Assembly: GCA_021432655.1 (NCBI GenBank)
Contig: MU271284.1
Span: 1-64,000 of the forward strand
Direction: 5' to 3'
Source: Atractiella rhizophila
Taxonomy: Eukaryota
DNA length: 64,000 nt
Within the stretch, counting starts at the first letter, position 1, and each line of letters opens with the position of its first letter. The position numbers and the translations under genes are program-made. This document shows, in pieces, positions 12,628 through 58,075 of this stretch. The notes under the pieces are model-generated. The model saw only the letters and a list, made by a program, of their open reading frames with translations. It searched no databases and had not been told where the DNA came from.

Positions 12628-15600
12628 TTAAATTACAATTTTTGTTTTCTTTCTGCCAAAAAAGTGTTGATTTTCTCTAGTAATTCAGCGTCTGTCGATT
12701 CATCAGTACCGAAATGTTTGGGAGCTGCTGAAACGTACTTGGAATGACTTGTTCGATCTTGAGTGGTTGTCGGTTAAACGGATCCGTTGGATCGCTGAGC
12801 AGATGTTGCTTGATTGTGCTGCGATCGACCACTGCTTTCGAGCCAGGCAGAGTGACTGGATCACGCATAACCACGTAGGTGAGGGGATCTGTATCTTCGT
12901 CAGTGGGCAACACGGCGGTGGTGGTGGGAGACATACCGAGGAACTCGTCAGGATAATCTCCCATCTCCTCATCCGCCGCTTCTTGTGCTCGGATGTCCTC
13001 CACCTGTGACACCAATTTTCGCAGGATTTGCAAATCTTCTTCACTCTTGATCGCTTTTTTTCGGCATATCTCCTCTGCTCTCTCAAACAGACCTTTCGAA
13101 TAACTTCTTCCATCTCTCGAAATTGCCTGAACAAACTCCGGGGCCTTGGCGAGATTGACGTAGACGGAAAGAATATCGTCAAGCAGCTGCTTTGGACGGA
13201 AACGATACCGCTCCTTGTCCGAGACAGAGAGAGTCTGACATTTAGGTCCAGCGAGGACGTCGAGGTTGAAATCCAGCATGGCAGCAAGCCGGTCTACAAT
13301 CTCCGGAGTAAGGAACGGTGCCTTCGTCTCAGCTGTGAAGGCCTTCAGCGTGTGAAGGTTCTCATTGCACAAATCCAGATAGCCTTTGGCGCGACTTTCG
13401 GATTCACCAAACCCTCGTTCTGCATCCTCTCGCTCCTCGTTTGTCAGCGCTTCCCACTCCGCGGTACGTGCTTTTCGCTTCTCAAATTCGTAAATCTTCG
13501 CCAGATGCGATAGCGACTCGTCCAAGACGTACGTTGTGTCGTTCATCATGAGATTCACAAAGCGTACAAAGTGCTCGAGATTCCTGGTCATATTTCAGCA
13601 AAGTCACCTGGATGAGAAGCAGTCCCACTTGGTCTCCTCCCTAAGAGCCTCTCGATGGGTGGGATTATCCCAAAGGAATCTGAAAATTTGTGAAATGCTG
13701 TTGGAAATGAATCAGTGGTAGATCAGTCAAAGAAGAAGCTATAAGACTTGCTGGAAACGGGTATTGAACTTGTCATAGAACTGACTGTGCGAACCGGTGG
13801 TTTCGATATCAATATAGATGGTTATGAGACCCGAGGAAAGGTATTTCAGTGCCATGGGATTATAGTTAATCGCGTCTCCGAAGGTTCCACGTCGATAACC
13901 AGGAATCGGTTGACATGTGAGATAAATGACCTGAAAACACTCTTTAAATGGAACTCTCGCAAGATGGACTATCCTACTTCAACGAGCTGTCCTCGAAGAT
14001 ACGGATTCTTGATGTATTCAGGTCCGCTCGCCAGAAAGACAAGGATGAAAGTAAGCAGCTCATCCTTCGTTTGGTTCGCCAACACTTGAGGGGCATGATT
14101 AGAAACGAAAGGGAAGAACTCTGCTATATCCTCCAGAATGTATTCGGGGAGCATCCTAAACTTTGCTGGCGCGTCCACTGGCAATGGCAACCTATAACCT
14201 TCTCATCAACCAATGCGATCAGTTTACAAAGGTCTAAAGGTTTACGTGATTTGAGGATTTGGGTGCTTCCCCTTCGGGTCCACCAGCCTGACCAACCAAG
14301 TCATTGCGAGATTCAAGAACCCGATTGTCTTTGCCAAAAATTCAGGATGAAGAAGTTGGGCCTCCATCGCCATCAGAAAGCTCTCTAACTGATCCTTTTG
14401 GCTCTTTAACCTTTCCAAACTAACGCGCATCACAGGTTCTTGAGGTGTCCCTCTCCAACTGGATTCCTCCCTCTGTGCTCGATCGTACTCTCGAGCGAGG
14501 TCAGAACGCCGCCTTGAATATCGCTTGAAAGTGCCGATCGTCTTCATGAGCCCGAGATGCATGAAGGAGCAAGTGAGGAAGAAAACATCAGAGATGAAAT
14601 TGGGTGATGGGACTGTGTAAACAACTTCCGTCAGCAATATTTCCAGGTGTAAAGAGGAGGACGAACTTGATGAAGGATCCGTGACGGCGTAGTACTCCTT
14701 TGCCTCCTCACTCGTCGCATTTATCTTGGTCTCTTCATCGAGATTCAACCTCTTCCCTCCCTTGAAATAGAGCGGATCGATCTTGTCCACCTATGCAGAA
14801 CTTTCAGTCGTCGCACGGATCGTTAGAGAGAGTCCAAGCGAGCCTTTGAATATTGCGGATCAATGATAGGTCCAGCAAACCCTAACAACACGGCCAGGAT
14901 ATTAACCATGAACCCGTCGCTTGAGACCGTCCTCGGATCCACCTATCATCCCGATTCTCATCAGCTACGCACTCATCTCGTTTGAAGAAGGAAGAAAAGA
15001 ACGCACATAAGCACCAGCTCGTTTTTCATTCAGCCTCAAGACCGCACACCAATAATTTATCACATGTTCTCTCGCTTTCGGTCCACTCCGTACTATGTTG
15101 TTTGTGATAGTGAACAAACTATTCTGTGCATTTTAAAGAGCTCATCAGCTCGGCGCAAGCTCAAAAGGAAGGAAATAGAATAGAACAAACGAACCTGCAC
15201 ACTAGTACTCGTGCCCCTCAGCCCAGCGAAAGCCGAATGTATATCACCAGGGTTCATATTCGACGGCTGAGGAAAGAAGGTGGATGCGTTTTGCGGCTAC
15301 ATCAGGCACCAAAATACTGTCAGCGAGTGCCATGGCAGACCACAACAAGAAGGGAGGGTACCTTTTTATCCGGGAACGTGGAGAGGCCAAAAAAGAGTCC
15401 GAGAGGTGGACAGACCTCCAGAAGTTGTGGACGACCAGCTGGGATCTGTTTCAGTCCCTCCTCGAGCAGTTCTGCTATCTGTAATCGTTGAGAAACGCAT
15501 CATTCTCTGCCTCCCACAGGAAAGGAATACGTACAGCTGCAGCTACACCTTTGATCTCACTGAGGAGCACCATCGCCTCGATGAACCGCCTCCATTCGAG

Positions 15601-34197: not shown

Positions 34198-37100
34198 TTA
34201 TGCAGATGTGGACATAGCAGAAAAGATGTCGTCCCAGGCTTTCTGTAGCTTAGTTTCATCCTTGCACACCGTCTCCAACTCTCTACATATCTCATCTACG
34301 TCTGGGATACTTGCATGCCTCGCCCTGCTTCTGGAGATGAATAACCTGTTTTTGAGAAATAGGAAGCCCTCCCCGTCATTTAAAACAGCCACGGAAGCAC
34401 AGCCAGAACGGTGTAAGAATTGTGCGTGATGACAAGGATCCCTCCTATACGTGTATTTAACGTCGATCGTGGGAGAGAACACTGCATCCATTTCTATATC
34501 CAGAAGGTAGTCGAGATTCTTGAGTAGTTGGCGTTCAAAATATTGAAAGGATTGGACGGACGGTTGCAGCAGTTTTTCAAGGTTTGTCACTGCAGGAGGC
34601 GGAATCGCGAAAGAAATTCGGGTAGGTAACTCGAAGGGATTATCATCTCCTTCGAGCTGGCCAACATTTGTTTCGACGAGATTCAAGCCATACTGATCCG
34701 CCGTTCGCTGCCACATGTCGAGAGTTGGGGTTAAGAGAGACGCTGTAAGTCTAAGCCAGGAAAGTTCAAGATGAAATGCCGCAAGTGGGTTGTGAGATAT
34801 GTCGAGGTGGAGCCAGAGGATTTCGGACCGTTCAGAAGCTTGGAACTTATCTAGATCGAGAATGATAACTCGGCTCATAACGATTTGTCCTCGGTTTTCC
34901 GTGCGCATTGGGGAGGTTCGATTTTGAGCAGTAGGCGAGCTATCGCGGGAAGGAATCGCGTTGCTCTGTCTCTCCACATCTGCTTTTTGCGTATTACCGA
35001 ACCATCTGCCCGTGTTACGAGGAAGGAATTCTCGATAATCCCCCTTGATGTTGTAGAAGAACCAGCCGTCGAGGAGAACACGGGAACCTTTCGTAGCATG
35101 CTCAAACAAGCCTTGTCTACGGAGCTGATCACCTAGTTCGATGGCTTTCTCTCGGGTTGGAACATCTTCGAAAGTATTGACGAGCCATGTGACGAATTGG
35201 AAGCCGACAAACACATCCTGATGCTTTCTTCCCCACCAATTGCGATTTCGTAGTTCAACGCCAGAGACTGGATCGCACATGAGTTTGGCAAGCGTGTCTA
35301 CAAAACCTTTCAGCTTGAAAAGGAGTGATACCAGTGGCTACCGACCGAGGGGAGTCCCTTGCAATCTCCTAGCATTGGCGGGGTACTGTCTGTTGTCGTG
35401 ATGTCTGGCTTCTGAAAGAGCATAAATCGGGGGCTCGAGAGTCGTAAATTCGACAGAGATAGGATCATCGTCCAAATTCATTCCAGGAGCGCACCAACGA
35501 GCATCTTCAAAGAGAGAGAAAAGCTGAAACATCCCGGTGAGCCTGATATCCTCGTCAGTCGCGCTGGCATCCAGTTGAGTCCTCTGTTCAATTAATGCAG
35601 CTCTAGACTCTTCCGTGGGCTTCTTAGGAAGGAGAACACAACGCATCCGCCAGTACTTCATGGAGTCTCGCAGACTTGGGTGTTTCTCACCGCCAGATAG
35701 GATTGTGTCTAGGTATTCCCAATCCTCAGGTGAAATTAGAGAGGGATAAGCGAACCGGATCCTCGAATCTCTAAAGGTTTCCGTTGACGAAATAGCAAAA
35801 TTGTAGACATAATCCTCTGTAGCCCAAGTCCGCTTGCGGGTTAGGATGTCAACAGTCACAAATCGCGAATCGGTACTGTAGGATATTTTATGGATCTGAT
35901 TGCTCAGGCTGAGATAGACTGAGGTGGTCCTGCCCCGCTCAAGGTCATCGAGAATATCAGAAATTGTCTTGTATTTGTCAGATTCGGCGAATTCTGGGGC
36001 TCCTCGTCTACGATAGCGATAGGCCTTAGTAATAATTTGAAAGCCTTGAGAGCGATCAGCTTGGGAATGATATGGGACAGGGTGATACCTTGTGCTAATC
36101 GTTGGCACATCATCTCCATCACCAGAGCCCATGGTCGAGACTTCTTGATGGCTCGAGCTTTCAACATGAGTGAGGATGACCGCATCGAAACCTCATACTT
36201 TTCGGAAACATAGAAATATCTCTGCTCTTCTTGAGATGGAATGTAATCCGAAACGAGAGGGAGAGAGCTAAGTGACCCACGTCAAAAATCTTTACGGGGG
36301 TAGAAACGAAAACATACGCAGGTGTGGCGAGAGAGCGCCATTTGATGCTCCGTTGGTCTATGAAGCTTTTAGGAAAGACGTTTTGCCACCTCCGCTTATC
36401 TCTAGCTCGAGGACCTTCTGGTGTTTTAGAAGACTTCGAGGGGTTGAACGGGCGAGGGGGTTCAGGTGGTTCTGCTCGAGCGTGCATTAAATCAATGCCA
36501 GAGGCCCGAGAGCCGTGTTTTTTGGACACCTGAAGCTGTGACACACGTGGGTCTTCATCCTCTGGTTCAAGCTGGCGAATAAGTTCATCGGACATGGTGA
36601 CGGTGGTTGTGGCTTTCGCTTTGGTAGCAAAATTGAACTTCGGACCAGAGGAAGATTCAGATGTTACTCGAGGTTTAGACAATGTAGTCACGCCTTTGGA
36701 CGGAGCCATGAAACGGGATATGAGCAGAGGCGGTTTAGACGTAGTTGTTGCCTGTGATGAGTCCTTGATCGTCGTCGTGGTCCGTCCAGTCGTTGTGGTC
36801 GATGTGAAAGATCGGTTTGAGGCCACGGAAGTTGAGCGGGAAGCAGCACTGAGGGAGGGAGAAGTTGGATTAGAAATGGCTGCATCTTCCGCTTTCAGTC
36901 TCGCCACGGGAGTAGGCGACCTCCCCTTCTCACTATCCTTCTCCTTCGATCGTTCGGGAGCTTGCGAGAGCGTGGAGACAACGTCGGTACTCCTTCCCCG
37001 CGACACCGCTTCACCCTTCGGTTCCACTCTCGCAGGCGGCACGATCTGTTCAGGTGCCTTCAACTTCGGCCGCATAGCGTGAGTCGGGCCATCGAAGGAA

Positions 37101-39190
37101 CCGCTGCTTTCGTCTCCGTTCGAAAAGTGCCCATAAGGTGAAGAATTGAATTGGTACGGATTCTCATCCCCCGTCGAATAGCTCGAACCTGCGAACTGAA
37201 CTCCTGCGTCCGGATTCCTACCCTTATAGCGTGGCGCGAATACCTGTGCGTCATAGGCATCTCTAAGCATCTGGCGCTTTTGCGCATTCGACGATCGAAA
37301 CCATTGGTCGCCTACGTCGCTATAAATCTGAAGGCTCCCATTCTTCTCTTCCCACGGCGAATCGTCATCTTCCTCGTCGTTCGAGGAAGACATAATGCTC
37401 CTCTCCGACATCTCCAACAATCGGGCAGGCAAGAAACCGTGATGCTGTTCCTCGTCCAACGGGATTTTGAGATCCAAGAAGGGGAGGAGAATCGGCTGCA
37501 GCTGCGTAACTCCCATCATACTAATCTCTCCTACTCTCGCTCGGGGAATAAACCTGTCAATTCTGAAAGGCTTATCATACTGTTTCGCGAAGAAAGAACA
37601 GTCAACCCAGATCGGCTTGACATAGAAACTGAGGATCTCGGCGGAAGGACCGGCGGGATGGTCAAAGTAGAGAGGATCGGCTGAATCCCCTTCGTCCCAG
37701 ATATTCTTTGTGGAAAGCTCAGGTGAGGACGGGTGTAACTTTCGGTGAGAAGATGTCGGCGAGAGGCGATCGGAAGTTTGGTGACGGAACTCTTGAGGAT
37801 TGGAAGACATGAAGAGCAACAGCGGTACTACAAAAGCTCAGTGGGTAGGCATAGAAGAAGTGCAACAAGAAACGAACCAGCATGCAAAGGCTTCTTGCTA
37901 AGAGAAACCAAATCAACTCCTAATCCAAGATACATAGCCCTCTCGATGGTCAGTCGGAGGAGTCGCTTGTCCACCTTGAAGAAACAAGTTCCAGCGGTAA
38001 CGAAGACTATGCTGAGTCCAGTTTTCGAGAGGTCCCTATCTATATAATGCTTATCAAAAGCGTTGAAGACGAGATTGATAGGTTCAAGAAAACTTGATTC
38101 GAAAGCGTAAGTCAGTCGTCCGACGAGTCGAATATCGCCTTCAAACTTCGAAGCCATCTCAGACATTGCGATTCGCCGAAAATCGACAAATTCTTTCATG
38201 ACCTTCAGAAGGATGGTATCTTCATCAAGGTGCGAATCTAGATCCACGACCACCTTATAAAAATCCTTGTACCCTCCTTGCCCATCCTCATCCCTCGTCA
38301 CCGGCTCCCTCACCTGTCCTAGTTCCGCTTGATCATATCTCACTCTTCCAAACATGACCAACGACACAGAATGGCTTGTCCTCCTTGCCTCCCATTTCTG
38401 AAACAAACTCGGGAGGAATACGTGAACGCAGCGCTCGAAATACATGGTGCCATCATCATCGAACTCAAACATCTCTTTCGAGACTTGAATCATAATATAC
38501 TGCTTGCAGCTCTCGCTCCTGAACACGAATTGAGTCTGCGAATTGACGATGCCCGAAAGTGAAGCCTTGTCCCGACTCTCGACATTGGTAGAGTGCGTAT
38601 CAGAATGAATGCGGTCGATCCGACAGCGGATATTCGTCGAAGGGAGGGATACGATTTGGTTTTGAAAGACAGAACGCCCGAGGAGGACGAGAGAGAGCTG
38701 GAATTGGTCTGCTCTTCCTAAGTATTGAGAGCCAAATAGAAGTTCGATGTGCGTTATTTGCGTGGAAGGAGGAAGAGGCGCTGGTATCTGGTTCGCAAGG
38801 CAACTTTAACAACATGGCAAGGTAAATGAGGAAGAGTTTTGATGTGGTAGCATCTTTCTCACAAGCTGCGACGCATGTAGACTCCAAGCTCTGCATCTCG
38901 CAAAACAAAAACTGGAACAAGGAGGAGCATTTGAAATCACAACTTACTTTCTCTACCTTCACCACGTCTCTGTGTCTCCAACCAAATGTCCTAGCCACAT
39001 TTGCACTGACTTGGAGCTGCAAACTTCCTGCCGCATCTTCGCTCTCTCCTTCATACTTGAAAATCAGCTTCCCTCCAATCTTGAGCACGTCTCCTTCTCC
39101 AATAGAAAATGGCAGAGCCTTTGCATTAATCAGAATGTCGGCCGAAGGGGTCCCCTCTGATACCCACAGCGTGAGCTCGGGAGGACGCAT
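34198..39190 (-). CDS. IML1: GATOR1/SEACIT subunit Iml1 (DEPDC5)
   Basis: QYLGRAD, VFRSES, IQVSKEMFEFDDDG, HYIDRDLSKTGLSIVFVTAG, RWQNVFP, WRSLATPA, a DEP domain (FVGFQFVTWL...TREKAIELG...DGWFFY) and QFLHRSG. Confidence 0.93.
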
Positions 39191-47799: not shown

Positions 47800-50700
47800 A
47801 TGGATAAAATTGAAATGGACGGAGACAGCAATCTACCTCTCCCGACAGAAATCATGATCCAAATATTCAAAGATATACTTCCAACTACTTCTCCAATTGG
47901 CCAGCTTCTTTCCTCCTCCGACCTGTGCTCTTTCGCGCGCGTCAACAAGCGGTGGAATTCCATTGTCCAACCATTGCTCACTAAATACGCTGTGCTCACC
48001 TTCGATCTTGACCCCGGGGATGAAATTACGAGTCGGGAAGAAAATGATCAACCTTGGTCGGCGGTTAATGCGGAACGGGTGGAACGTTTCGAGGGGGACC
48101 ATGGGCCAATCGCGTGAAGATGACGGTCTCAAGGTTGTTGTGTTGAGAGATAGCCCAGAGACCAATTGGCAAGATGTAGCGAAAGACTGGAAACCCTTCT
48201 TCGACTTTTTCCATGCAGGTTTCCTTCTCTTCTTCGCCACAAAGATCACCTACCTTGACCTCGAGGCCTTCGATCCCGACTTGCCACTAACTTTCAACTT
48301 CCCTTCTCTTCGGACGTTAAAGGTCGAAATGGTTTTCCATCGCAGAGGGTTTATGGCTACTATTCAGGACACCTTTCCACGTTTTGCCGAATTTTCAGCA
48401 TTACAAGTGCTCGAGCTTCGAAACATCGACTTTTTCAGGGGGAACTCGGGCCTCCAACCTCCAACCTTTGCACTTAGATCCCTCTCCGCTTCCACCAAGT
48501 ACAGTCAGAGGCCCGCCGATGCGAGCGATCTCGACCTGTTCCAGTACCTGTCCGCTTCCGACAGCAAATTAGAACGCCTCGTGTGGCGTACAGAAGGACC
48601 ATTCGACAAATTGAATCTCATAACCTGCAGCTACCTCGTTTTCTTCTCGTGTACAATTGAAGATTTTCATTGGGCGCTTCCTGTCTTCCCGCCGCTTCCC
48701 AAACTCAAACACCTCGAATTCGGCACTTCACGATATGGGATACAAGATCTTCCCCTCCTATCCACCTTTCCCCATCTCAATCAATCGAGGGGGCTCAAGT
48801 CTCTTAAACTGACTGAAGTACTCATTATCTTCCCGCCGCCTGAATCAGGCTTCCACTTCGATGCAACCGAATGGAAATGCGAGTTGGAGGAATTGGAGTG
48901 GACCCACCCGCGAGATAAGTTCACGCCAAGCGATGTATTTCTCAGCCTCCAAATCCTTTGTCCCGACTCCTCCTCTCCTCCCCTTCGAAGATTCAAGTTA
49001 TCTTATCTATCATTTGGTGATCCGAAATACAACATCCTCTTCCTATCTCGCCTGCTCTACTGCCCCACTTCGTCATTCAATCCCAGCCCATCATCCCTCA
49101 ACATCTTCAAAAACGGCTGGCTCGAGACTATCCAAACTCGATACCTCCATCCCCTTTTAATCTCCACTCCCACATACGAATTGCAAGGCCGCACACTGTA
49201 CCTAGATGACGGTCATCCGGACTCTCTCCGTCTCTTCATCGAACCACTCATCCGTTCTATCCAACAAAACACCTTGCCCTCTCTCACCACTGTGAGGATC
49301 GGATGGACGATAGATCCTGATGATCCCTACCAGGTTTTGCGCGGCCCGATGGAGTTGTCTTCGGAAGATTACCACCTATTACAGCAAGTGAAACATGTGA
49401 CGAGCGAAAAGAACATCCTGTTTGAGAGTGGGGATGTCATTATGAAGGCGCCAGAGGCGGTTGGTGCTGCCGCCCAAATAAAGGACGGCGATGTGGGAAG
49501 CGAAGAATATAGAGATAACGAGAACGAGGAAGACGATGGTGCAGAAGAAGGTAGCGATTATGAGCAACCGGATGAGTCCGATATCGACTACTCTTACTTG
49601 TCGTCAGATGAGTCGGATGAGGATGCTTCAAGCCCAGGCTCAGAGGAATTGCTCAAACCCACTCAGTCGACGGGACATTCATACAATATCCTGTTCCTAG
49701 GCACAGGCACTTCAGAGAGCATACCCACCATCTCTTGCCTCACCTCCAATCCCTGTCTCTGTTGCTGCCTCGCTCATCCGCCCTCCAAATCCAAATTCAA
49801 ATTCATATCTAAGTCCAAGTCAAAATACAAATCCAAAGCAAAAACCGAATTCAGATCCAAATCCAAATCTGAGGAATCCAAGCGGCCACTTCCTAAGCCT
49901 AATAAACGCCGGAACACCTCCGCGCTCATCACTCTCCCCAGCGGAAAAACAGTACTTATCGACTGTGGCAAAAGCTTCAGAGAAAGTGCGTTAGAGTTCT
50001 TCCCGAAGAACGGGAAGAGTGTCATCGACGCTGTGCTGCTCACCCATGAGGTTAGTATTCCCTTGGTATTTCATAACGGTCATGGTCTTCGTCATAAATG
50101 GTGGTCTGATTGCTGCTGACCATATATTTACGAAGAATTTCATAAGAAAACATGATTATGAACGTTACAATTTCCGTAGATCGAATGCACGATACTATGA
50201 AATGAGTGGATTCTGCGGACGACGAGAATTGACCTAGATTTTGCATGCGAACAGCACGCTGATGCTGCCTATGGACTGGACGATCTACGGGCGTGGACTC
50301 TAGGAGGAGCAATTCAACCCTCATTGGACGTTTACTGCGATCGAAAGACGTATGATGCGCTCTCTCGCGTCTTCCCGTACACCATCGACCGATCAGCTTC
50401 CACGGGGGGAGGGGATGTTCCCCAGTTCTCCTGGCACATATTCGAGGCTGATCAGCCTGTGCATTTGTTCGACAGCACCATCGTACCTCTCAAAGTCGAG
50501 CATGGACTCTCAGCCCCTGACTCTGACCATTCCTCTGACCGTGCCCCCAACTCCGTCTCAAACTTAAGCCCCTAAGATGTGGACCAAGTTGGCGAGAATT
50601 CGAAGGAGACGATGAGAAAAACGCCATATTATTGTCTCGGTTACCTGATCGACGATTCCATCGCCTACCTGTCAGACGTATCCCAGATCCCTCCTCAGGT

Positions 50701-51271
50701 CTGGCACCGGCTCCATTCTTCATACCAACTCACGGGTCGTCACTTGGACGTACTCGTTATTGATTGCTTGCGTCTTCTACCCCACATCTCGCACTACGGA
50801 CTCCCCCAAGCCCTCCTTACCTCCGGCCTCCTCCATCCCACTCGCACCTACCTCACAGGTTTCGCACATCGTGCCACCCATTCTCAATGGGCCAGTGTAG
50901 CGGAAGATTGGGGCGAAGGCGAGTGGCGTGTCAATGGAAGAGAGAAGATCCGAAGGCTAGGAGAGATGGATGTACTTCAAGTTCCTCCAAGTGATCTGGG
51001 GGCTGAACGTATCAAAGAGAAATCGAGAAGGATTGACAAGGCAGCAGATGGAGCGGAGTCGGCGTTTGTGGAGATAGCAAGAGAGATGACAGAAAAAATA
51101 GCCATAGAGAACGTCCTTGGAGACGTCGCAAGACAGGTGCAGGGAAAGGTGATGATGCGGCAGAAGGTTGTCGGAACCTGGGTTCGACCTGCATACGATG
51201 GCTTGAATGTTTTCGTCGGTGTCAACGAGCAGGGTAGAAGAGTTTGGGATGACTCGCCTGAAGAACTGTGA
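47800..51271 (+). pseudogene. F-box/LRR-like + MBL-fold hydrolase fusion, copy 1 (frameshift and in-frame stop)
   Basis: Paralogue of 52766-56131. The F-box LPLPTEIMIQIF is in a different frame from the rest (one extra base within 48012-48044). In-frame TAA at 50573-50575 inside the MBL domain. Intron 50051-50254. Confidence 0.75.
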
Positions 51272-52765
51272 CGTATAGTGCGCTTTCTTTGCATCTAATG
51301 TCAGGGCGCCCGTTGACGATTGGCAAAGGAACAGAGCATACATCGCAGCATTACGAGCAAAATAAATACACATGTCATCGCACTTAAAGCTTCAAAAGGC
51401 ACTCAAAGTTGCGGCTAAAAGTCCCCAGAAGCCAACTCAGGCTCCTCCCATCTCTTATTCTGCGATGCTTCAATTGAGGTTTTGGTTTATATTGAGGGCA
51501 ACGGCAGTGCAAATCCGCCCCGCAGAAAAACTAATGTAATTGAGAGGGCGTTGGAAGTCAATGTCCCCCATACTGCTGTGGCTCTTCTCTAGAGCTGAGC
51601 TATCGACTGAACGTACCTCACACTCTTGGTGTGCTTTCAGCTTTTAGCTTTGCTGTCAGGCACCACTTTCGAGGTACCTCCTCGGAACTCTTGACTACTG
51701 TGAACATCAGATAGCAATCCAACTCTTGTTCATGTTCATCTACGGTTGCATCGTAGGCGTTCGGTTCGGGACCACCTCACGTGATCGCGATGGAAGAAGG
51801 TTAACCCATCAGACGTCCACTCGACCAGCTCGTCGGAATTCACATTCGGTTGCATTGCTTTACCCAACCAACGATCTAGTGATCCAACCCAAAACCCTCA
51901 ATAGGTGCGTGATCCTTTTCGTGTGTCCATCAGGTACCATCAGTCACTGTATCAGGTCATTAATGGTCGATCCTGCACAGTTGACGCGTTCGAAATATAA
52001 AGCTATGGCACCTTGCATTACTAGACTGGTGAGAGTCATCATCAGGGGAAATCGTTTAGAAACTCCCGATTTTAATGGTATTTATTTAGAGCAGCCTAGG
52101 AAGCGTGTTATTGTCTTCAACTCTTCGTTTTATTCTGAGTTATTTCCAGAGATCGTTCTGCGGGCAAGGGGTGCTGTTGTCTCATCCTCCATTTCGTGCC
52201 GTGTTCCGAGTCAATCTGTGGTACCTGGCCAGGCATCATCATAACGCTATGACTCTCCCGCCTTCTATGATTCAAATTCTGTGTCAGGGATTTATTCTCC
52301 AACGCATTTGCTGTTAAGTTTGGTTCTCCCATGTGAGAGATTTCTAGGTGTTTGCTGTTTCTTGTGCAGTCTTTAGTGTGCCGCGCATTATGTGCTGCAC
52401 TTGTAAAACAGACATTTCGGTTCGTAACGGTCCTTAAATCTTTCTTTCCCCCCCAGGCAAACGAAACCGCTATGTTTCACTCTTACACAAACGCTATACC
52501 CTCGTTTTGTCAAGGACAAAGAATTAATTGGAGGTGCTTTACCTAGCGAGCTCCAGTCCGACGGCGGTGCGTTTCAATCATAATAAGTAAGCATTGTTTG
52601 AATCTTGAACATCGTGAACGAAGGAAGTAGGTTACTTCCAGTATATTTCATGAGAATTTAATTTAGGAAACACTTCATTCCGAAGGCGTGGACAGCTGAC
52701 TGGATTGCATGTCTATCCAGAAACACAGCAACACCAGACTCAGCGATATCTTGGTAACTCGAGCA

Positions 52766-55700
52766 ATGAACAGCTTCGACATGGAGGTGGAAAGCGATAT
52801 ACCTTTCCCTACAGCAATCATGCTCCAAATCTTCGCATACATGCTTCCGAACAAATCTCAATACAGTCAGCTTCTCTCCTCCTCCGATCTCTGCTCTTTC
52901 GCACGCGTCAACAAGCGGTGGAACTCCATCGTGCAGCCATTGCTCGCCAGATACGCCGTGCTCCTGTTTGATCTCGACCCACGGGATGACGGGTTGACGC
53001 GTAAAGAGGCCATCGATCTCGGAAATCGTTTAATGCAGAATGGATGGAATGTTGCGACTGCCGCAGGGGACGGACCGAATAATGACCATGGTCTCAAGGT
53101 CGCTGTGCTGAGAGATAATCCTGGACCCGAAAGAGATTTTGGGAGGTTTTATTGGGAACCGTTTTTCAAATTCTTCCAGGCACGCTTTCTCCCTTTCTTC
53201 TGCTCCCAGATCACCTACCTTGAGCTCGACGACTGCGACCCTGCCTTCCCCGTGACTCCTGACTTCCCTTCTCTCCGGACGCTGAAGCTCGACTCTCGCG
53301 GAGGCATTCTGTACAAGATCTTTCCACGTTTTGCCAATTTCTCATCCTTACAAGTCCTCGAGCTTCGAAACATTGAACTTTTCGGGTGGGATTCGGACCT
53401 CCAACCTCCAACTTTTGCACTTAAATCCCTCTCCATTGCCACCGAGTTCAGTCAGCGGCCCGCCGAAGGCAGCACTCTCGACCTGTTCCAACACCTGTCC
53501 ACTTCGGACAGCAAATTAGAACGCCTCATATTGCGCACAGAGGGGGAACTCGACAACTTCAACTTCACATCCTGCAACCACCTTGTCTTCTTTTCTTGCA
53601 TGATTGATAATTCTCATCGGACCCTTCCTGTTCTTCCTCTCTTCCCGCCGCTTCCCAAACTCAAACACCTAGAATTCGGCTCCTCTCGTTACGGGAAACA
53701 GGATCTCCCTCTCCTCTCCGTTTTTCCCTACCTCAACCAATCGAGGAATCTCAAATCTCTTAAACTGACTGAAGTCACCATAGCTCTCCCACCCAGTGAA
53801 TCAGGCTTCAACTTCGATGCGGAGGACTGGAAATTCGAACTGGAGGAATTGGAGTGGACCCACCTGCGAGAAGGGGTGGTCAAGTTCACACCTAACGATA
53901 TTATTCTAAGCCTACGAGTCCTTCGTCCCGACTCCTCCTCTCCTCCCCTTCGAAGATTCAAGTTATCTTATCTATCATTTGGTGATCCGACATACAGCAT
54001 CCTCTTCCTATCTCACCTCCTCTACTGCCCCGCTTCGTCATTCAATCCCAGCCCACCATCCCTCAACATCTTCGAAAACCGCTGGCTCGAGACCATCCAA
54101 ACTCGACACCTCCATCCCCTTTTAATCTCCACTCCCACATACGAATTGCAAGGCCGCACACTGTACCTAGATGACGGTCATCCGGACTCTCTCCGTCTCT
54201 TCATCGAGCCACTCATCCGTTCCATCCAACAAAACACCTTGCCCTCCCTCGCCGCTGTCAGGATTGGATGGACGATAGATCCTGATGATCCTTATCAGGT
54301 TTGGCGCGGTCCGATGGAGTTGTCTTCGGTAGATTACCACCTATTACAGCAAGTGAAACATGTGACGAGCGAAAAGAACATCCTGTTCGAGAGTGGGGAT
54401 GTCGTTATGAAGGTGCCAGAGGCTGTTAGTCCTCATGGCCGAAGGGAGGAGAACGGTACTGTGGGAAGCGAAAAAGACAGTGATAGGGAGGACGAGGAAG
54501 ACAATTGCGCAGAGGAAGGCAGCGATTATGAGCAACCGGATGAGTCCGATATCGACTACTCTTACGAGTCGTCAGATGAGCCGGATGAGGATTCTTCAAG
54601 CTCAGGCTCAGAGGAATCACTCAAACTCGGAGTCCACCTGACGAGACATTCGCACAATCTCCTCTTCCTGGGCACAGCCACTTCAGGGTGCATACCCACT
54701 ATCTCATGTGTCACCTCCTCCGACCCATGTCGCTGCTGCTCCCTCGCACACTCTCCCGCCAAATCAAAATCCAAAAATCCCCTCCCAAATCCTAACAAGC
54801 GCCTCAACACTGCAGCGCTTATAACACTCCCCAGCGGTAAAACGATACTCATCGACTGTGGCAAGAGCTTTAGGGAGAGCGCGCTAGAGTTCTTTCCGCG
54901 CAACGGGAAGAGCGTCATCGATGCCCTTCTGCTCACTCATGAGGTTCGTTTTTCCTACTCAGTTTCATATTTTTTCGTCACGATATTTTTTGCCGTGCTT
55001 GCTATGACTGTCGCGGTATCATGATGGGGAGGATGTATTAAATAACTGTCATGAAAGGCCTCATATTACAGACTTCGTGCAGCGAATTGAGTGACATGGT
55101 TGTGGGGACAGCATGCTGACGCTGCCTATGGACTGGACGATCTACGGGCGTGGACGCTAGGAGGAGCAATTCAACCCTCATTAGACGTTTACTGCGATCG
55201 AAAGACGTACGATGCGCTCTCTCGCGTCTTCCCGTACACCATCGACCGATCAGCTTCCACGGGGGGAGGGGATGTTCCCCAGTTCTCCTGGCACATATTC
55301 GAAGATGATCAGCCCCTGCATTTATTTGGTAGCACCATAGTACCCCTCAGAGTCGAGCATGGCCTCTCAGCCCCTCACTCTAACCATTCCTCCAACCCTG
55401 TCTCCAACTCAGTCCCAGAACCAAACCAACATTTGAATTCAAACGGCATTAGCGTGACCGCAGAGAACTTGAAGGAGAGACCGACAAAAGCGCCGTATTA
55501 CTGTCTTGGCTATCTGATTGACGACTCGATCGCCTACATTTCTGACGTCTCCCAAATCCCCCCTCCCGTTTGGAGACTCTTCCACTCCTCATACCAGCGT
55601 ACAGGTCGTCCCCTGGACGTCCTCGTCATCGACTGCTTGCGTCTCCTTCCTCACGCATCTCACTACGGCATCGCACAAGCTCTCTTGACCTCCTCCCTCC

Positions 55701-56131
55701 TTCGTCCAACTCGCACGTACCTCACAGGGTTCGCACATCGCGCCACCCACTCAGAGTGGACACGCGTAGGGAAAGAGTGGGGCAAAGGCGAGTGGAAGAT
55801 TAACGGGAGGGAAAGGGTCGAAAGGAAGGGAGCAATGGATGTCCTGTTCCCAGCTACTTCCTCTCAGGTCTCCCTTGGAACAAAAGAAGAGTTTGAGAGA
55901 GGAATTGAGAAGGATGAGGAGGCATTTGTCAAAATGGCGAGAGAGATGACAGAGAAAACCGCCATTGAGGACATCCTAGGAGAAGTCGCATATGAAGCCT
56001 TGGGAAAAGTGATGATGCAGCAAATGGCACTCGGAACTTGGGCAAGACCTGCCTACGATGGGCTCAACATTTTCGTTGAAGATGACGTGCGGGGCAAAAA
56101 AGTTTGGGATGACTCTCCAGAAGGGCTTTGA
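52766..56131 (+). CDS. F-box/LRR-like + PhnP-like metallo-beta-lactamase-fold hydrolase fusion, copy 2 (intact)
   Basis: One frame runs from the F-box (IPFPTAIMLQIF...DLCSFARVNKRWNSIVQPLL) through LRR-like units (FPSLRTLKL, FSSLQVLEL, LPKLKHLEF, NLKSLKL) and an acidic linker into LLFLGTATSG, ILIDCGK, LLTHE|HADA, VEHG, YISD, HASH, GFAH and RPAYDGL. One intron, 54944-55111. Confidence 0.85.
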
Positions 56132-56282: not shown

Positions 56283-57264
56283 TCAGGGGTAACGCTCAAA
56301 ATCCTTCGAAGCCTTCTCCAACTCTTCACAGCGCCCATTCTGCTCTCCCTCCTTCAACTCATGTTTATACGGGGGGACGACCCGATAAAGGACCCCGCTG
56401 ACTGCAGCTGCTAAGAGGTCTCCGATCCACCAAACCCACTGTTCCCTCTGCCACATCCAGCTCCCAAACGCCATTCCGAAGCACCGAGTTGGGAACGCAA
56501 TCCCTCCAGAGAATCCAGGGACGAGGCCTGATGTTGACCAACTGGACAATGCGATGGTCAGTCCCACCAGGAAGGGACCAAGCGCTGGACCATTCAGCTC
56601 CTTCGATCGAGGATCAAGGCCTACACCATAGGCAATGAAGAGCACACTGAGAGCCGTTGAAAATTCTGGGAACACACGTGTGAATTGTAACTCTCTGAGA
56701 TGCAAGAATGAACGCACCAACGACCAGTGCTTGTCCCGCCGTATACGATCCATCTTCTGGGAACCAACAACCTCCTGCGTGCCTCCTCCTGGTTCGTTCT
56801 ATGCCCATGCCTCCCCTCAACAAAGCCCCAGCGACGGCCGCGCCAATCAGCTGACAGAAGACGTAAATAACTCCCCTGACAGGTCGACATAGGCCAGTCA
56901 GAACTGTGGAAATGGTAATGAGCGAGTTGACATGTCCCCCAGAGACGGGTCCCGTCGCAAAGATGGCCAAGGAAACGACTACGAAGTTGGATATGGCGAT
57001 GTAAGGGCCAGGTTGGGACGTCCCATATGACTGGATGGTCTCGTTAGCTGCTCCGCTGAGGAATACAACGGCCAAAGTGCCGAATGCCTCAATGAGACCC
57101 TGCTTCCATAATCGAGCTGACGTCCACTCTCGAAGGGACCAGCCGCGCGAGCTGAAGAGAATGGAGAATGGAGAATGCGTGTAGGCGTTTTCGGGAGCGG
57201 GTGTGAATGCGAGGGAACCAGGAAAGTCTGGGGAGGGGCGTGTCTTGGATTCTTCCAAATCCAT
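56283..57264 (-). CDS. Aquaporin (MIP family), XIP-like, with non-canonical NPA boxes
   Basis: IEAFGT, PVSGGHVNSLIT, YVFCQLIGAAVAG, loop-C GGC, YGVGLDPR, GGIAFPTRCFG and WVWWIG. One intron near 56667-56712. Confidence 0.88.
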
Positions 57265-58075
57265 CTTTGCAGTGTGATAGCTAATAGGGTCAAGGCCTGA
57301 AGAGCGAACGGCGAGCGACGAGTCAGAAGGGCTTATGATGTTTATATTCAACGGAATGTGCGCCCTCATTGTACTGGACGGAGATCGGGCAAAACGAGTG
57401 CCCATGCAACAAGATGTAATGCTCTCCCAGCCCGGTCTCAAACATCATTGGTATGAGCTTGGGAAGGAATGAATGGAAGGAAAATATTGGAATAGAGCTA
57501 ATGATGAAAGCGTAAGATTGTCAGAAACTCTGCCCTTGGGCCTCAATACACCAATTTTGGTGCCAATTTAGCATGACGACGTGGATGCCTTCTTAAATAT
57601 TTCGACTCGAAGAAAGTCAATATTTGAAGACGTTGGACAATGCATTGAACTTCGAGGTAGCTGATCGACTGGTCAAACCATGAAACGAAACACAAAATAG
57701 TCCACGTTAAACGTTTGAAACGACAATGGATGTGCAGGTTGAGCGACTGTGGTTGTGAGAGAGAACAGAAGCAAAGAATGAACAGGTGGGAGTGGTATTC
57801 TTAGCCCAAAGAAATCAAGAACAGTTTTGATCGGAGAGTGAAAGGATAAAGGTCCGTACAATGACATGAGCTTTATCGCTTAACGAACGATAAATTCTAA
57901 TCCAATCCATCCAGGAATAGCTTTTGTCACCCATATCCAGTCCAATATACAACGAAGAATGTTTTAAAGAATTAAAGAATTCTGAGACTCGAAATTTACG
58001 GACCGACTGATTGAAGAAATGAAATAGCAAAAAGAAAAATCCAAGAAACCACTCTGATGCCCATGAGCTGAGTGC

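Follow-up and report, generated by a model that had tools for sequence, protein, structure and literature searches.

Gene structure at the locus

The window analysed here is a stretch of 64,000 nucleotides from the root-associated fungus Atractiella rhizophila (GenBank assembly GCA_021432655.1, contig MU271284.1, positions 1 to 64,000 of the forward strand), and the gene under study lies at 52766-56131 on its plus strand. Two stop-to-stop frames on this strand, 52700-55024 (774 codons) and 55091-56131 (346 codons), are joined by a phase-0 intron of 168 nt (54944-55111, GTTCGT...ACAG), giving a spliced coding sequence (CDS) of 1065 codons whose sole stop is terminal. The CDS encodes, in this order, an F-box-like motif, a leucine-rich repeat (LRR)-like solenoid of about 490 aa (weak evidence), an acidic linker and a metallo-beta-lactamase (MBL)-fold hydrolase of the PhnP family, with no stop codon over the 726 codons between the F-box and the MBL domain. 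An original prediction, made by a model from the letters of this stretch, had described one uninterrupted frame from F-box to MBL domain, and the spliced CDS bears this out; we consider it very probable that the fused frame is a real gene. An earlier in-frame ATG at 52709 falls within the 816-nt intron of the 5' untranslated region (UTR). The exon upstream of this intron ends with a TAG in the CDS frame, indicating that it is 5' UTR and that the ATG at 52766 is the start. The parts of the gene are as follows.

51815-51904, plus strand: 3' part of the 5'-UTR exon, from an RNA joint and sequence; the in-frame TAG at 51902-51904 is its end
51905-52720, plus strand: 5'-UTR intron of 816 nt (GTGCGT...TCCAG), from RNA joints
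52766-54943, plus strand: coding exon 1, 726 codons, from the frame; once the TAG is spliced in, ATG 52766 is the first in-frame start
52808-52939, plus strand: F-box-like motif, aa 15-58 (Pfam PF12937)
53183-53965, plus strand: LRR-like solenoid region, about aa 140-400 (weak evidence), in which LxxLxL motifs recur at intervals of roughly 24-36 aa
53966-54406, plus strand: conserved C-terminal part of the N-terminal module, aa 401-547, with 91% identity to the neighbouring copy, a synonymous divergence (dS) of 0.11 and shared 31-mer blocks
54407-54649, plus strand: acidic Asp/Glu/Ser linker, aa 548-628, from composition, structure-prediction confidence and selection ratio; its first residue is the internal Met548
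54656-54943, plus strand: N-terminal part of the MBL domain, with a Cys cluster at aa 647-658 (nt 54704-54739) and the metal-motif residues T-H-E
54944-55111, plus strand: phase-0 intron of 168 nt, from an RNA joint; it interrupts the HxH|xD metal motif, and the Pfam profile resumes behind it without a gap (positions 39/40)
55112-56131, plus strand: coding exon 2, 339 codons and stop, with the rest of the MBL domain (VEHG region H807, D871, D900, H907, H910, H935, H939) and the C-terminal tail, in which the family motif WARPAYDG is found at aa 1036-1043

Transcription of the locus

RNA evidence was drawn from assembled contigs of run X8, the soil metatranscriptome X1 and the metatranscriptomes X2 and X3, with 17 of the 41 contig pieces listed. 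X8 behaves as RNA because its contigs show GT..AG joints. Its contigs cover 28 of 30 bins, and 18 of 28 pieces match the window at 99% or more, while X1, X2 and X3 cover small parts only (5, 3 and 2 pieces, respectively). The 816-nt joint of the 5' UTR (51904/52721, GT..AG; aligned as 51902->52719 and cut at +2) was recovered in two studies, with a side of 93 letters in X8 and of 88 in X1, and the 168-nt coding intron is removed in an X8 contig (54943/55112, GT..AG, side of 41 letters). Contig 15 of X8 starts at 54374, spans the linker and the first MBL strands, and then crosses the 54943/55112 joint.

Between the neighbouring gene and the focal gene, X8 coverage is found at 51329-51519 and 51815-51904. 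Short upstream ATGs occur in the UTR exon, for example at 51789, where a TAA follows after 4 codons.

The linker and selection on the reading frame

The linker at aa 548-628 consists of Asp, Glu and Ser to 51%, as the predicted Asp/Glu/Ser composition had it, and its predicted local distance difference test (pLDDT) values below 50 mark it as predicted disordered. A Pfam match of this segment to BKRF4 was weak and compositional and was rejected.

The ratio of nonsynonymous to synonymous divergence (dN/dS) was computed by the Nei-Gojobori method from the focal gene and its tandem neighbour codon by codon, with the frameshift of the neighbour bridged and its stop masked. Values were 0.23 for the F-box (aa 1-70), 0.35 for aa 71-200, 0.36 for aa 201-400, 0.35 for aa 401-547, 0.72 for the linker (aa 548-625), 0.10 for the N-terminal part of the MBL domain (aa 626-726), 0.17 for its C-terminal part (aa 727-945) and 0.20 for the C-terminal tail (aa 946-1065). 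The ratio is below 1 in all domains, which shows purifying selection on each of them and indicates that every folded part evolved as coding sequence in one frame. Between the tandem copies, dS ranges from 0.11 (aa 401-547) up to 1.6 (tail), a spread that suggests gene conversion between the copies, with a putative recent tract just upstream of the linker (53966-54406 against about 49230-49670).

The C-terminal half belongs to the PhnP family

The Pfam profile Lactamase_B_2 (PF12706) is split by the coding intron, with profile positions 2-39 matched in exon 1 (12.4 bits) and 40-198 in exon 2 (48.8 bits; cut-off 27), and on the spliced public model P0004 of the focal locus the whole domain scores 86.7 bits against the same cut-off of 27. 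The motifs SCVTSSDPCRCC (aa 647-658), THE|HADA (724-730), VEHG (807-810), YISD (868-871) and GFAH (932-935) coincide with near-invariant columns in an alignment of 42 family sequences. The focal protein conserves the residues of all such columns, among them three Cys (C648, C655, C658), HxHxDA, His in V(H/E)HG, Asp in SDVS, one Asp and two His in DxLRxxxHxSH, two His in GFxHxxxH and the C-terminal W-x-R-P-A-x-D-G. Likewise, the metal-ligand residues H725, H727, D729, H809, D871, D900, H907, H910, H935 and H939 occupy near-invariant or invariant columns. The metal-binding motifs that had been reported as retained are therefore all present, but the first reads HxHxDA rather than HxHxDH. Its final position is Ala in at least 90% of the 42 aligned family sequences and His in the bacterial row named as a PhnP-type enzyme, so that, judged from the alignment, this Ala is a trait of the eukaryotic family and not local decay. 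The Cys cluster that had been noted is also there, in near-invariant columns, and it presumably corresponds to the structural Zn site of PhnP.

An AlphaFold2 (AF2) model of the public spliced protein has a confident core: pLDDT is 90 or above at 244 of its 493 residues. Foldseek placed 6b9v first among the structures similar to the MBL model, with a template modelling (TM) score to the target of 0.83 and 29% identity, alongside the Brucella structures 3qh8 (0.76) and 3md7 (0.78) and PhnP 3g1p (0.73). The family profile gave the same leading match in PDB (6b9v, 3.9e-49; Brucella 3py5 and 3md7, about 1e-38; E. coli PhnP 3g1p, 7.9e-12), and Apyc1, RNase Z and PqqB were matched weakly only. The NCBIfam equivalog for PhnP, TIGR03307, scored 34.6 bits against a cut-off of 272.25, and the other NCBIfam matches were also below threshold (MBL_Geo_Pelo, 113.9 against 360; PRK02113, 94.3 against 386). 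As far as profiles and predicted structure go, the domain belongs to the PhnP family in the broad sense and is closest to the 6b9v enzyme, and it is not PhnP itself. The PhnP-like assignment of the original prediction thus holds at the level of the family, its closest structures and profiles being of that family, but the PhnP equivalog cut-off is missed by far; of the profile matches that it had led one to expect, F-box-like and Lactamase_B_2 passed their cut-offs and PhnP did not.

The N-terminal half resembles a fungal F-box protein

The F-box-like profile PF12937 scores 26.7 bits at aa 15-58 (cut-off 24.3), and it exceeds the cut-off in all three copies that contain the region (34.7 and 31.5 bits in the paralogues); PF00646 remains below its own cut-off (16.8 against 20.5 bits). 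In an AF2 model of aa 1-547, helices are placed at aa 14-26, 39-48 and 50-63 of the F-box region, where pLDDT is below 50, and short strands with pLDDT of 50-75 recur about every 25 aa. Ten LxxLxL motifs occur in aa 131-400, against 3.9+-1.8 in shuffled sequences, of which 7 in 2000 reach 10; the segments lie at aa 170, 195, 219, 251, 299, 329, 359 and 395. All listed Foldseek matches of this low-confidence model are LRR-type repeat proteins, with COI1-ASK1 chains first and TIR1, Skp2 and FBXL3 also present, and their scores are low (TM 0.13-0.29, best E 2e-4), for which reason they are used as a weak hint only. The neighbours of aa 1-547 in the ESM Atlas are clusters of fungal F-box proteins of 498-646 aa, with scores of 0.96-0.97. 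We read the N-terminal module as that of an ordinary, fast-evolving fungal F-box/LRR-type protein.

Tandem paralogue, further copies and public gene models

A tandem paralogue with the same layout precedes the focal gene, and four public A. rhizophila models belong to the family.

47800-51271, plus strand: tandem paralogue, from frame, Pfam and an RNA joint
P0004, 493 aa: focal locus; starts at Met548 (nt 54407) and drops 25 aa of a variable loop
P0001, 1003 aa: the neighbouring gene, letter for letter; starts after the frameshift and lacks the F-box
P0002, 1048 aa: an Inhibitor_I9 fragment, to which the end of the solenoid, the linker and the MBL domain are joined
P0003, 473 aa: F-box and first part of the solenoid

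The junction of LRR, linker and MBL domain in the neighbour is contained in one frame (47858-50119), and its homologous 204-nt intron (50051-50254) is spliced in X8 (50050/50255). The earlier observation that the neighbour carries the same junction is correct in this respect, but the neighbour is broken by two defects: a +1 frameshift, caused by an extra A in GAAGAAAATG at about 48040-48043, which shifts the F-box into a different frame from the rest, and a TAA in frame at 50573-50575, located in the variable loop that follows VEHG in the MBL part. An X8 contig over 47745-48343 reads through the A-run without a gap, an argument for the frameshift being real, and the neighbour has probably been disabled recently. 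P0002 has the junction too, and the order of parts and the linker recur in at least three loci.

All four public models are partial and none shows the whole fusion. Two introns in them were treated as devices of the gene caller: the 75-nt in-frame GT..AG intron of P0004 at 55400-55474, through which X8 contig 16 runs unspliced and which may be an alternative intron or a gene-caller artefact, and the 36-nt intron by which P0001 removes the stop of the neighbour, through which X8 contig 13 runs.

Several further observations concern the copies. An X8 contig over the F-box of the neighbour lacks one base at 47889, leaving the F-box core out of frame in the RNA-derived sequence; this deletion could be an error, an allele or a sign of decay. 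Further indels in X8 at 49596-50227 occur in contigs of 95-99% likeness and may stem from other paralogues. A 51-nt GT..AG intron at 51278-51328 is spliced in X8, 6 nt past the stop of the neighbour (51269-51271), and is either a 3'-UTR intron or an indication that transcription reads through towards the focal gene. The N-terminus of P0002 is Peptidase-inhibitor-I9/subtilisin-like, and the tail of P0003 reads like a frame-shifted continuation. About 85 aa are identical between the two models, whose contigs have different lengths in the records; they may represent two more loci, haplotigs or mis-modelled copies.

The other genes in the neighbourhood are of ordinary kinds and include a Ufd2-type U-box E4, an RPAP3-like gene, an ATP-synthase alpha/beta-family fragment, a fungal transcription factor, Iml1/DEPDC5 and tubulin chaperone D, and no signs of a conflict or secondary-metabolite locus were seen in the window. 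The Ufd2-type U-box ubiquitin elongation factor (12677-13594, minus strand) and Iml1/DEPDC5 of SEACIT/GATOR1 (34198-38805, minus strand) are unrelated neighbours. An aquaporin (MIP) gene at 56283-57444 on the minus strand lies tail-to-tail with the focal gene.

Distribution of the enzyme family and of the fusion

A HMMER search with the enzyme half against 1.84 billion representatives returned 886 matches at E <=0.001, of which the best 150 are listed. The named relatives of similar length, from many basidiomycetes, rusts, Rhodotorula, Mucoromycota and Pneumocystis, have a single domain and about 300-450 aa. The focal protein is built differently: the hydrolase forms the C-terminal 435 of its 1065 aa, and this half is a clear member of the family. 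Among 71 relatives of 186-594 aa, the sole A. rhizophila entry is the truncated model of the focal locus. Seven relatives have 595 aa or more, and the N-terminal part is common to the two A. rhizophila models only; no F-box appears in the precomputed Pfam lists of these seven, the other five of which carry PRELI, TGS/GTPase, RhoGAP or VHS/SH3 domains. A Pfam scan detected no F-box in any of 19 representatives taken from the best 150 of the 886 (18 of at least 462 aa, and P0004), and the extra domains found in them were SET, DM10 and LisH/Usp. With the N-terminal 726 aa as query, three proteins were matched, all from A. rhizophila.

The fungal family had been described as otherwise stand-alone, and the other fungi found do carry a stand-alone protein. 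No stand-alone copy of the hydrolase was seen in A. rhizophila in the protein databases, among the 71 and 7 relatives, nor did the other long relatives examined contain an F-box. For the name that the original prediction gave to the fungal group, S. pombe SPCC777.06c-like, a literature search with this identifier found no paper. The architecture had also been called unfamiliar from the literature; in agreement with this, no description of an F-box fusion with MBL/Lactamase_B_2 or of an A. rhizophila F-box protein was found in the literature, and no public model has both domains. As a domain architecture, the fusion is real and new; its parts are known, it is lineage-restricted, and it was seen in one species.

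Interpretation of the fusion

Taken as a whole, the evidence makes it rather likely that A. rhizophila possesses a transcribed, lineage-specific fusion of an F-box protein with a PhnP-family hydrolase, in which the enzyme is active and held by a Skp1-Cul1-F-box (SCF) ligase. An F-box protein of about 550 aa, of a kind typical for fungi, would have been joined, N-terminally and through an acidic, probably disordered linker of about 80 aa, to a conserved fungal PhnP-family binuclear metallo-hydrolase, and the fused gene would then have been duplicated, in tandem and elsewhere in the genome. By analogy with its solved relatives, the enzyme half may be active as a Mn/Zn-dependent phosphodiesterase or diphosphatase, with a nucleotide-derived small molecule as its substrate, and the F-box is predicted to bind Skp1, by which the enzyme would be held on Skp1/SCF.

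Several points weigh against this reading. The RNA contigs do not demonstrate one continuous mRNA from F-box to MBL domain: no contig among the 17 of 41 pieces listed bridges 54204-54374, and X8 depth is as low as 3.2 in the bin 54034-54330. Of the RNA that the original prediction proposed to seek across 54300-54700, contig 15 supplies the part from 54374 over the linker, but 54204-54374 is without a listed contig. The start of P0004 lies 33 nt downstream of the start of contig 15, which would fit an internal transcription start. The focal gene is the only fully intact F-box-to-MBL frame that was read, the two other loci being known from partial models. Word-indexed searches can miss relatives, and copy number and the stand-alone question rest on protein databases. 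For the N-terminal module, the AF2 model of aa 1-547, built from a 4-row alignment, is poor (mean pLDDT 41.8), Pfam LRR_14 matches the focal protein at only E 0.1 and 11.7 bits (cut-off 40), and no LRR profile matched the 753-aa frame of the neighbour in Pfam at E up to 1. The predicted F-box and LRR module accordingly divides: its F-box passes the Pfam cut-off, but its LRR part is weakly supported, with no Pfam LRR family above threshold.

The points on transcription also bear on an alternative in which the locus yields two products, with the hydrolase translated from an internal transcript that begins near 54.37 kb and starts at Met548, and the upstream F-box/LRR region surviving as a separate 5' part or as a decaying in-frame remnant. 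The coincidence of the P0004 start, the start of contig 15 and the low depth of the preceding bin would fit such an arrangement, as would the Met at position 548, which is kept in all three copies covering it, and the stand-alone state of the hydrolase in every other fungus found. However, the contig ends at 53669, 54204, 54374 and 55126 are all located within 31-mer blocks common to the focal gene and its paralogue, and de Bruijn contigs branch and break at shared k-mers. Because the ends sit on such 31-mers, the breaks at 54204-54374 are not evidence for a transcript start before the linker, and neither the stretches lacking coverage nor the dip in depth at 54034-54330 speak for or against a break in the transcript. 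Moreover, the conserved stretch just before Met548 is coding and runs on without a stop, so any transcript that holds this stretch and reaches the 3' end encodes the fusion. A decaying remnant fits poorly with an upstream part that is open to the MBL domain over 726 codons, is under purifying selection in frame (dN/dS 0.23-0.36) and is transcribed from a spliced 5' UTR in two studies; a protein of F-box and LRR alone would need a polyadenylation site in the linker, to which nothing points. We regard two separate products as unlikely. A hydrolase-only isoform from the conserved internal Met548 is possible and may coexist with the fusion.

In another alternative, which we find distinctly improbable, the MBL half does no catalysis but binds the ligand or substrate for an SCF receptor, which would be a metabolite-gated E3 receptor or an integrated decoy that lures an effector. 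F-box/LRR receptors that sense small molecules exist, with COI1 and TIR1 among the weak structural matches of the N-terminal module, and the Brucella relatives 3qh8 and 3md7 were crystallised with AMP and GMP bound, according to the entry titles. Against this, all near-invariant family residues including the metal ligands are kept, and the MBL half has the lowest dN/dS of the protein (0.10-0.20), as an active enzyme predicts. With no separate stand-alone A. rhizophila copy found in the protein databases, it looks like the working copy and not a bait duplicate. The neighbourhood gives no hint of an immune or conflict locus, and the decoy idea finds no support, the enzyme half resembling the sole representative in this organism of a conserved housekeeping-type family.

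An assembly or annotation artefact, by chance read-through of two adjacent genes, or a dead gene like the neighbour is hardly credible: the neighbour does have a frameshift and an in-frame stop and all public family models are partial, but the same part order and linker recur in at least three loci, X8 RNA agrees with the window and covers nearly all of its bins, and the focal frame is free of defects over 1065 codons with dN/dS below 1 throughout.

Functional implications and comparison with known systems

F-box proteins define the targets of SCF ligases and are themselves turned over by auto-ubiquitylation. If the fusion acts as proposed, it would tie the apparently only copies of the enzyme in this organism to Skp1/SCF, and the most likely effect would be SCF control of the abundance, stability or location of the enzyme, rather than new catalytic chemistry. 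To our knowledge, eukaryotic PhnP-like hydrolases are conserved across fungi and have no assigned role; a fusion that is under purifying selection and contains the apparently only enzyme copies is a hint that the level, place or substrates of the enzyme may be tied to Skp1/SCF. A bolder extension, which we consider very unlikely, would take the fusion as a "Rosetta stone": the conserved eukaryotic PhnP/Fpd-like hydrolase would work with SCF, its MBL pocket reading a nucleotide-derived mark or metabolite (an ADP-sugar or a cyclic phosphate) and the F-box coupling recognition or hydrolytic removal to ubiquitylation. If true, this would amount to a ligand-gated or modification-reading E3 receptor with built-in catalytic activity. 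The reach of the finding is limited to one species, and in eukaryotes F-box domains also occur in fusions with many other domains. The partial public models leave database architecture searches blind to the fusion.

In its N-terminal layout, the focal protein is like the SCF F-box/LRR receptors COI1, TIR1, Skp2 and FBXL3, with an N-terminal F-box, predicted to bind Skp1, followed by a putative LRR-type solenoid. Unlike known F-box/LRR receptors, among which no member with an MBL-fold hydrolase was found, it bears such a domain. F-box proteins with an enzyme domain are represented by KDM2A/B (JmjC) and Fbh1 (helicase).

The best profile and structural match to the focal MBL domain is 6b9v, whose entry title reads "a New Diphosphatase from the PhnP Family". 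It differs in being a 271-aa single-domain chain without F-box and in having HxHxDH where the fungal proteins have HxHxDA. The enzyme presumably cleaves ADP-sugar-type diphosphates rather than cyclic phosphates. A figure legend in PMC7599082 presents 6b9v as an FAD photoproduct diphosphatase with Mn2+, and the reference list of that article gives Beaudoin et al., Biochem J 2018, for the enzyme. E. coli PhnP (3g1p), a phosphodiesterase, has the same fold and belongs to the same family (TM 0.73), and differs in its identity of 20% to the focal domain. PhnP is the cyclic-phosphate diesterase of the C-P lyase pathway.

The stand-alone fungal PhnP-family hydrolases, such as those of Rhizopogon, Puccinia, Coprinopsis and Rhodotorula, have 35-45% identity over the focal enzyme half and share with it the Cys cluster, HxHxDA, the later His/Asp ligands and the W-x-R-P-A-x-D-G tail. 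They are proteins of 300-450 aa without an N-terminal module, whereas the A. rhizophila protein carries about 630 extra N-terminal residues.

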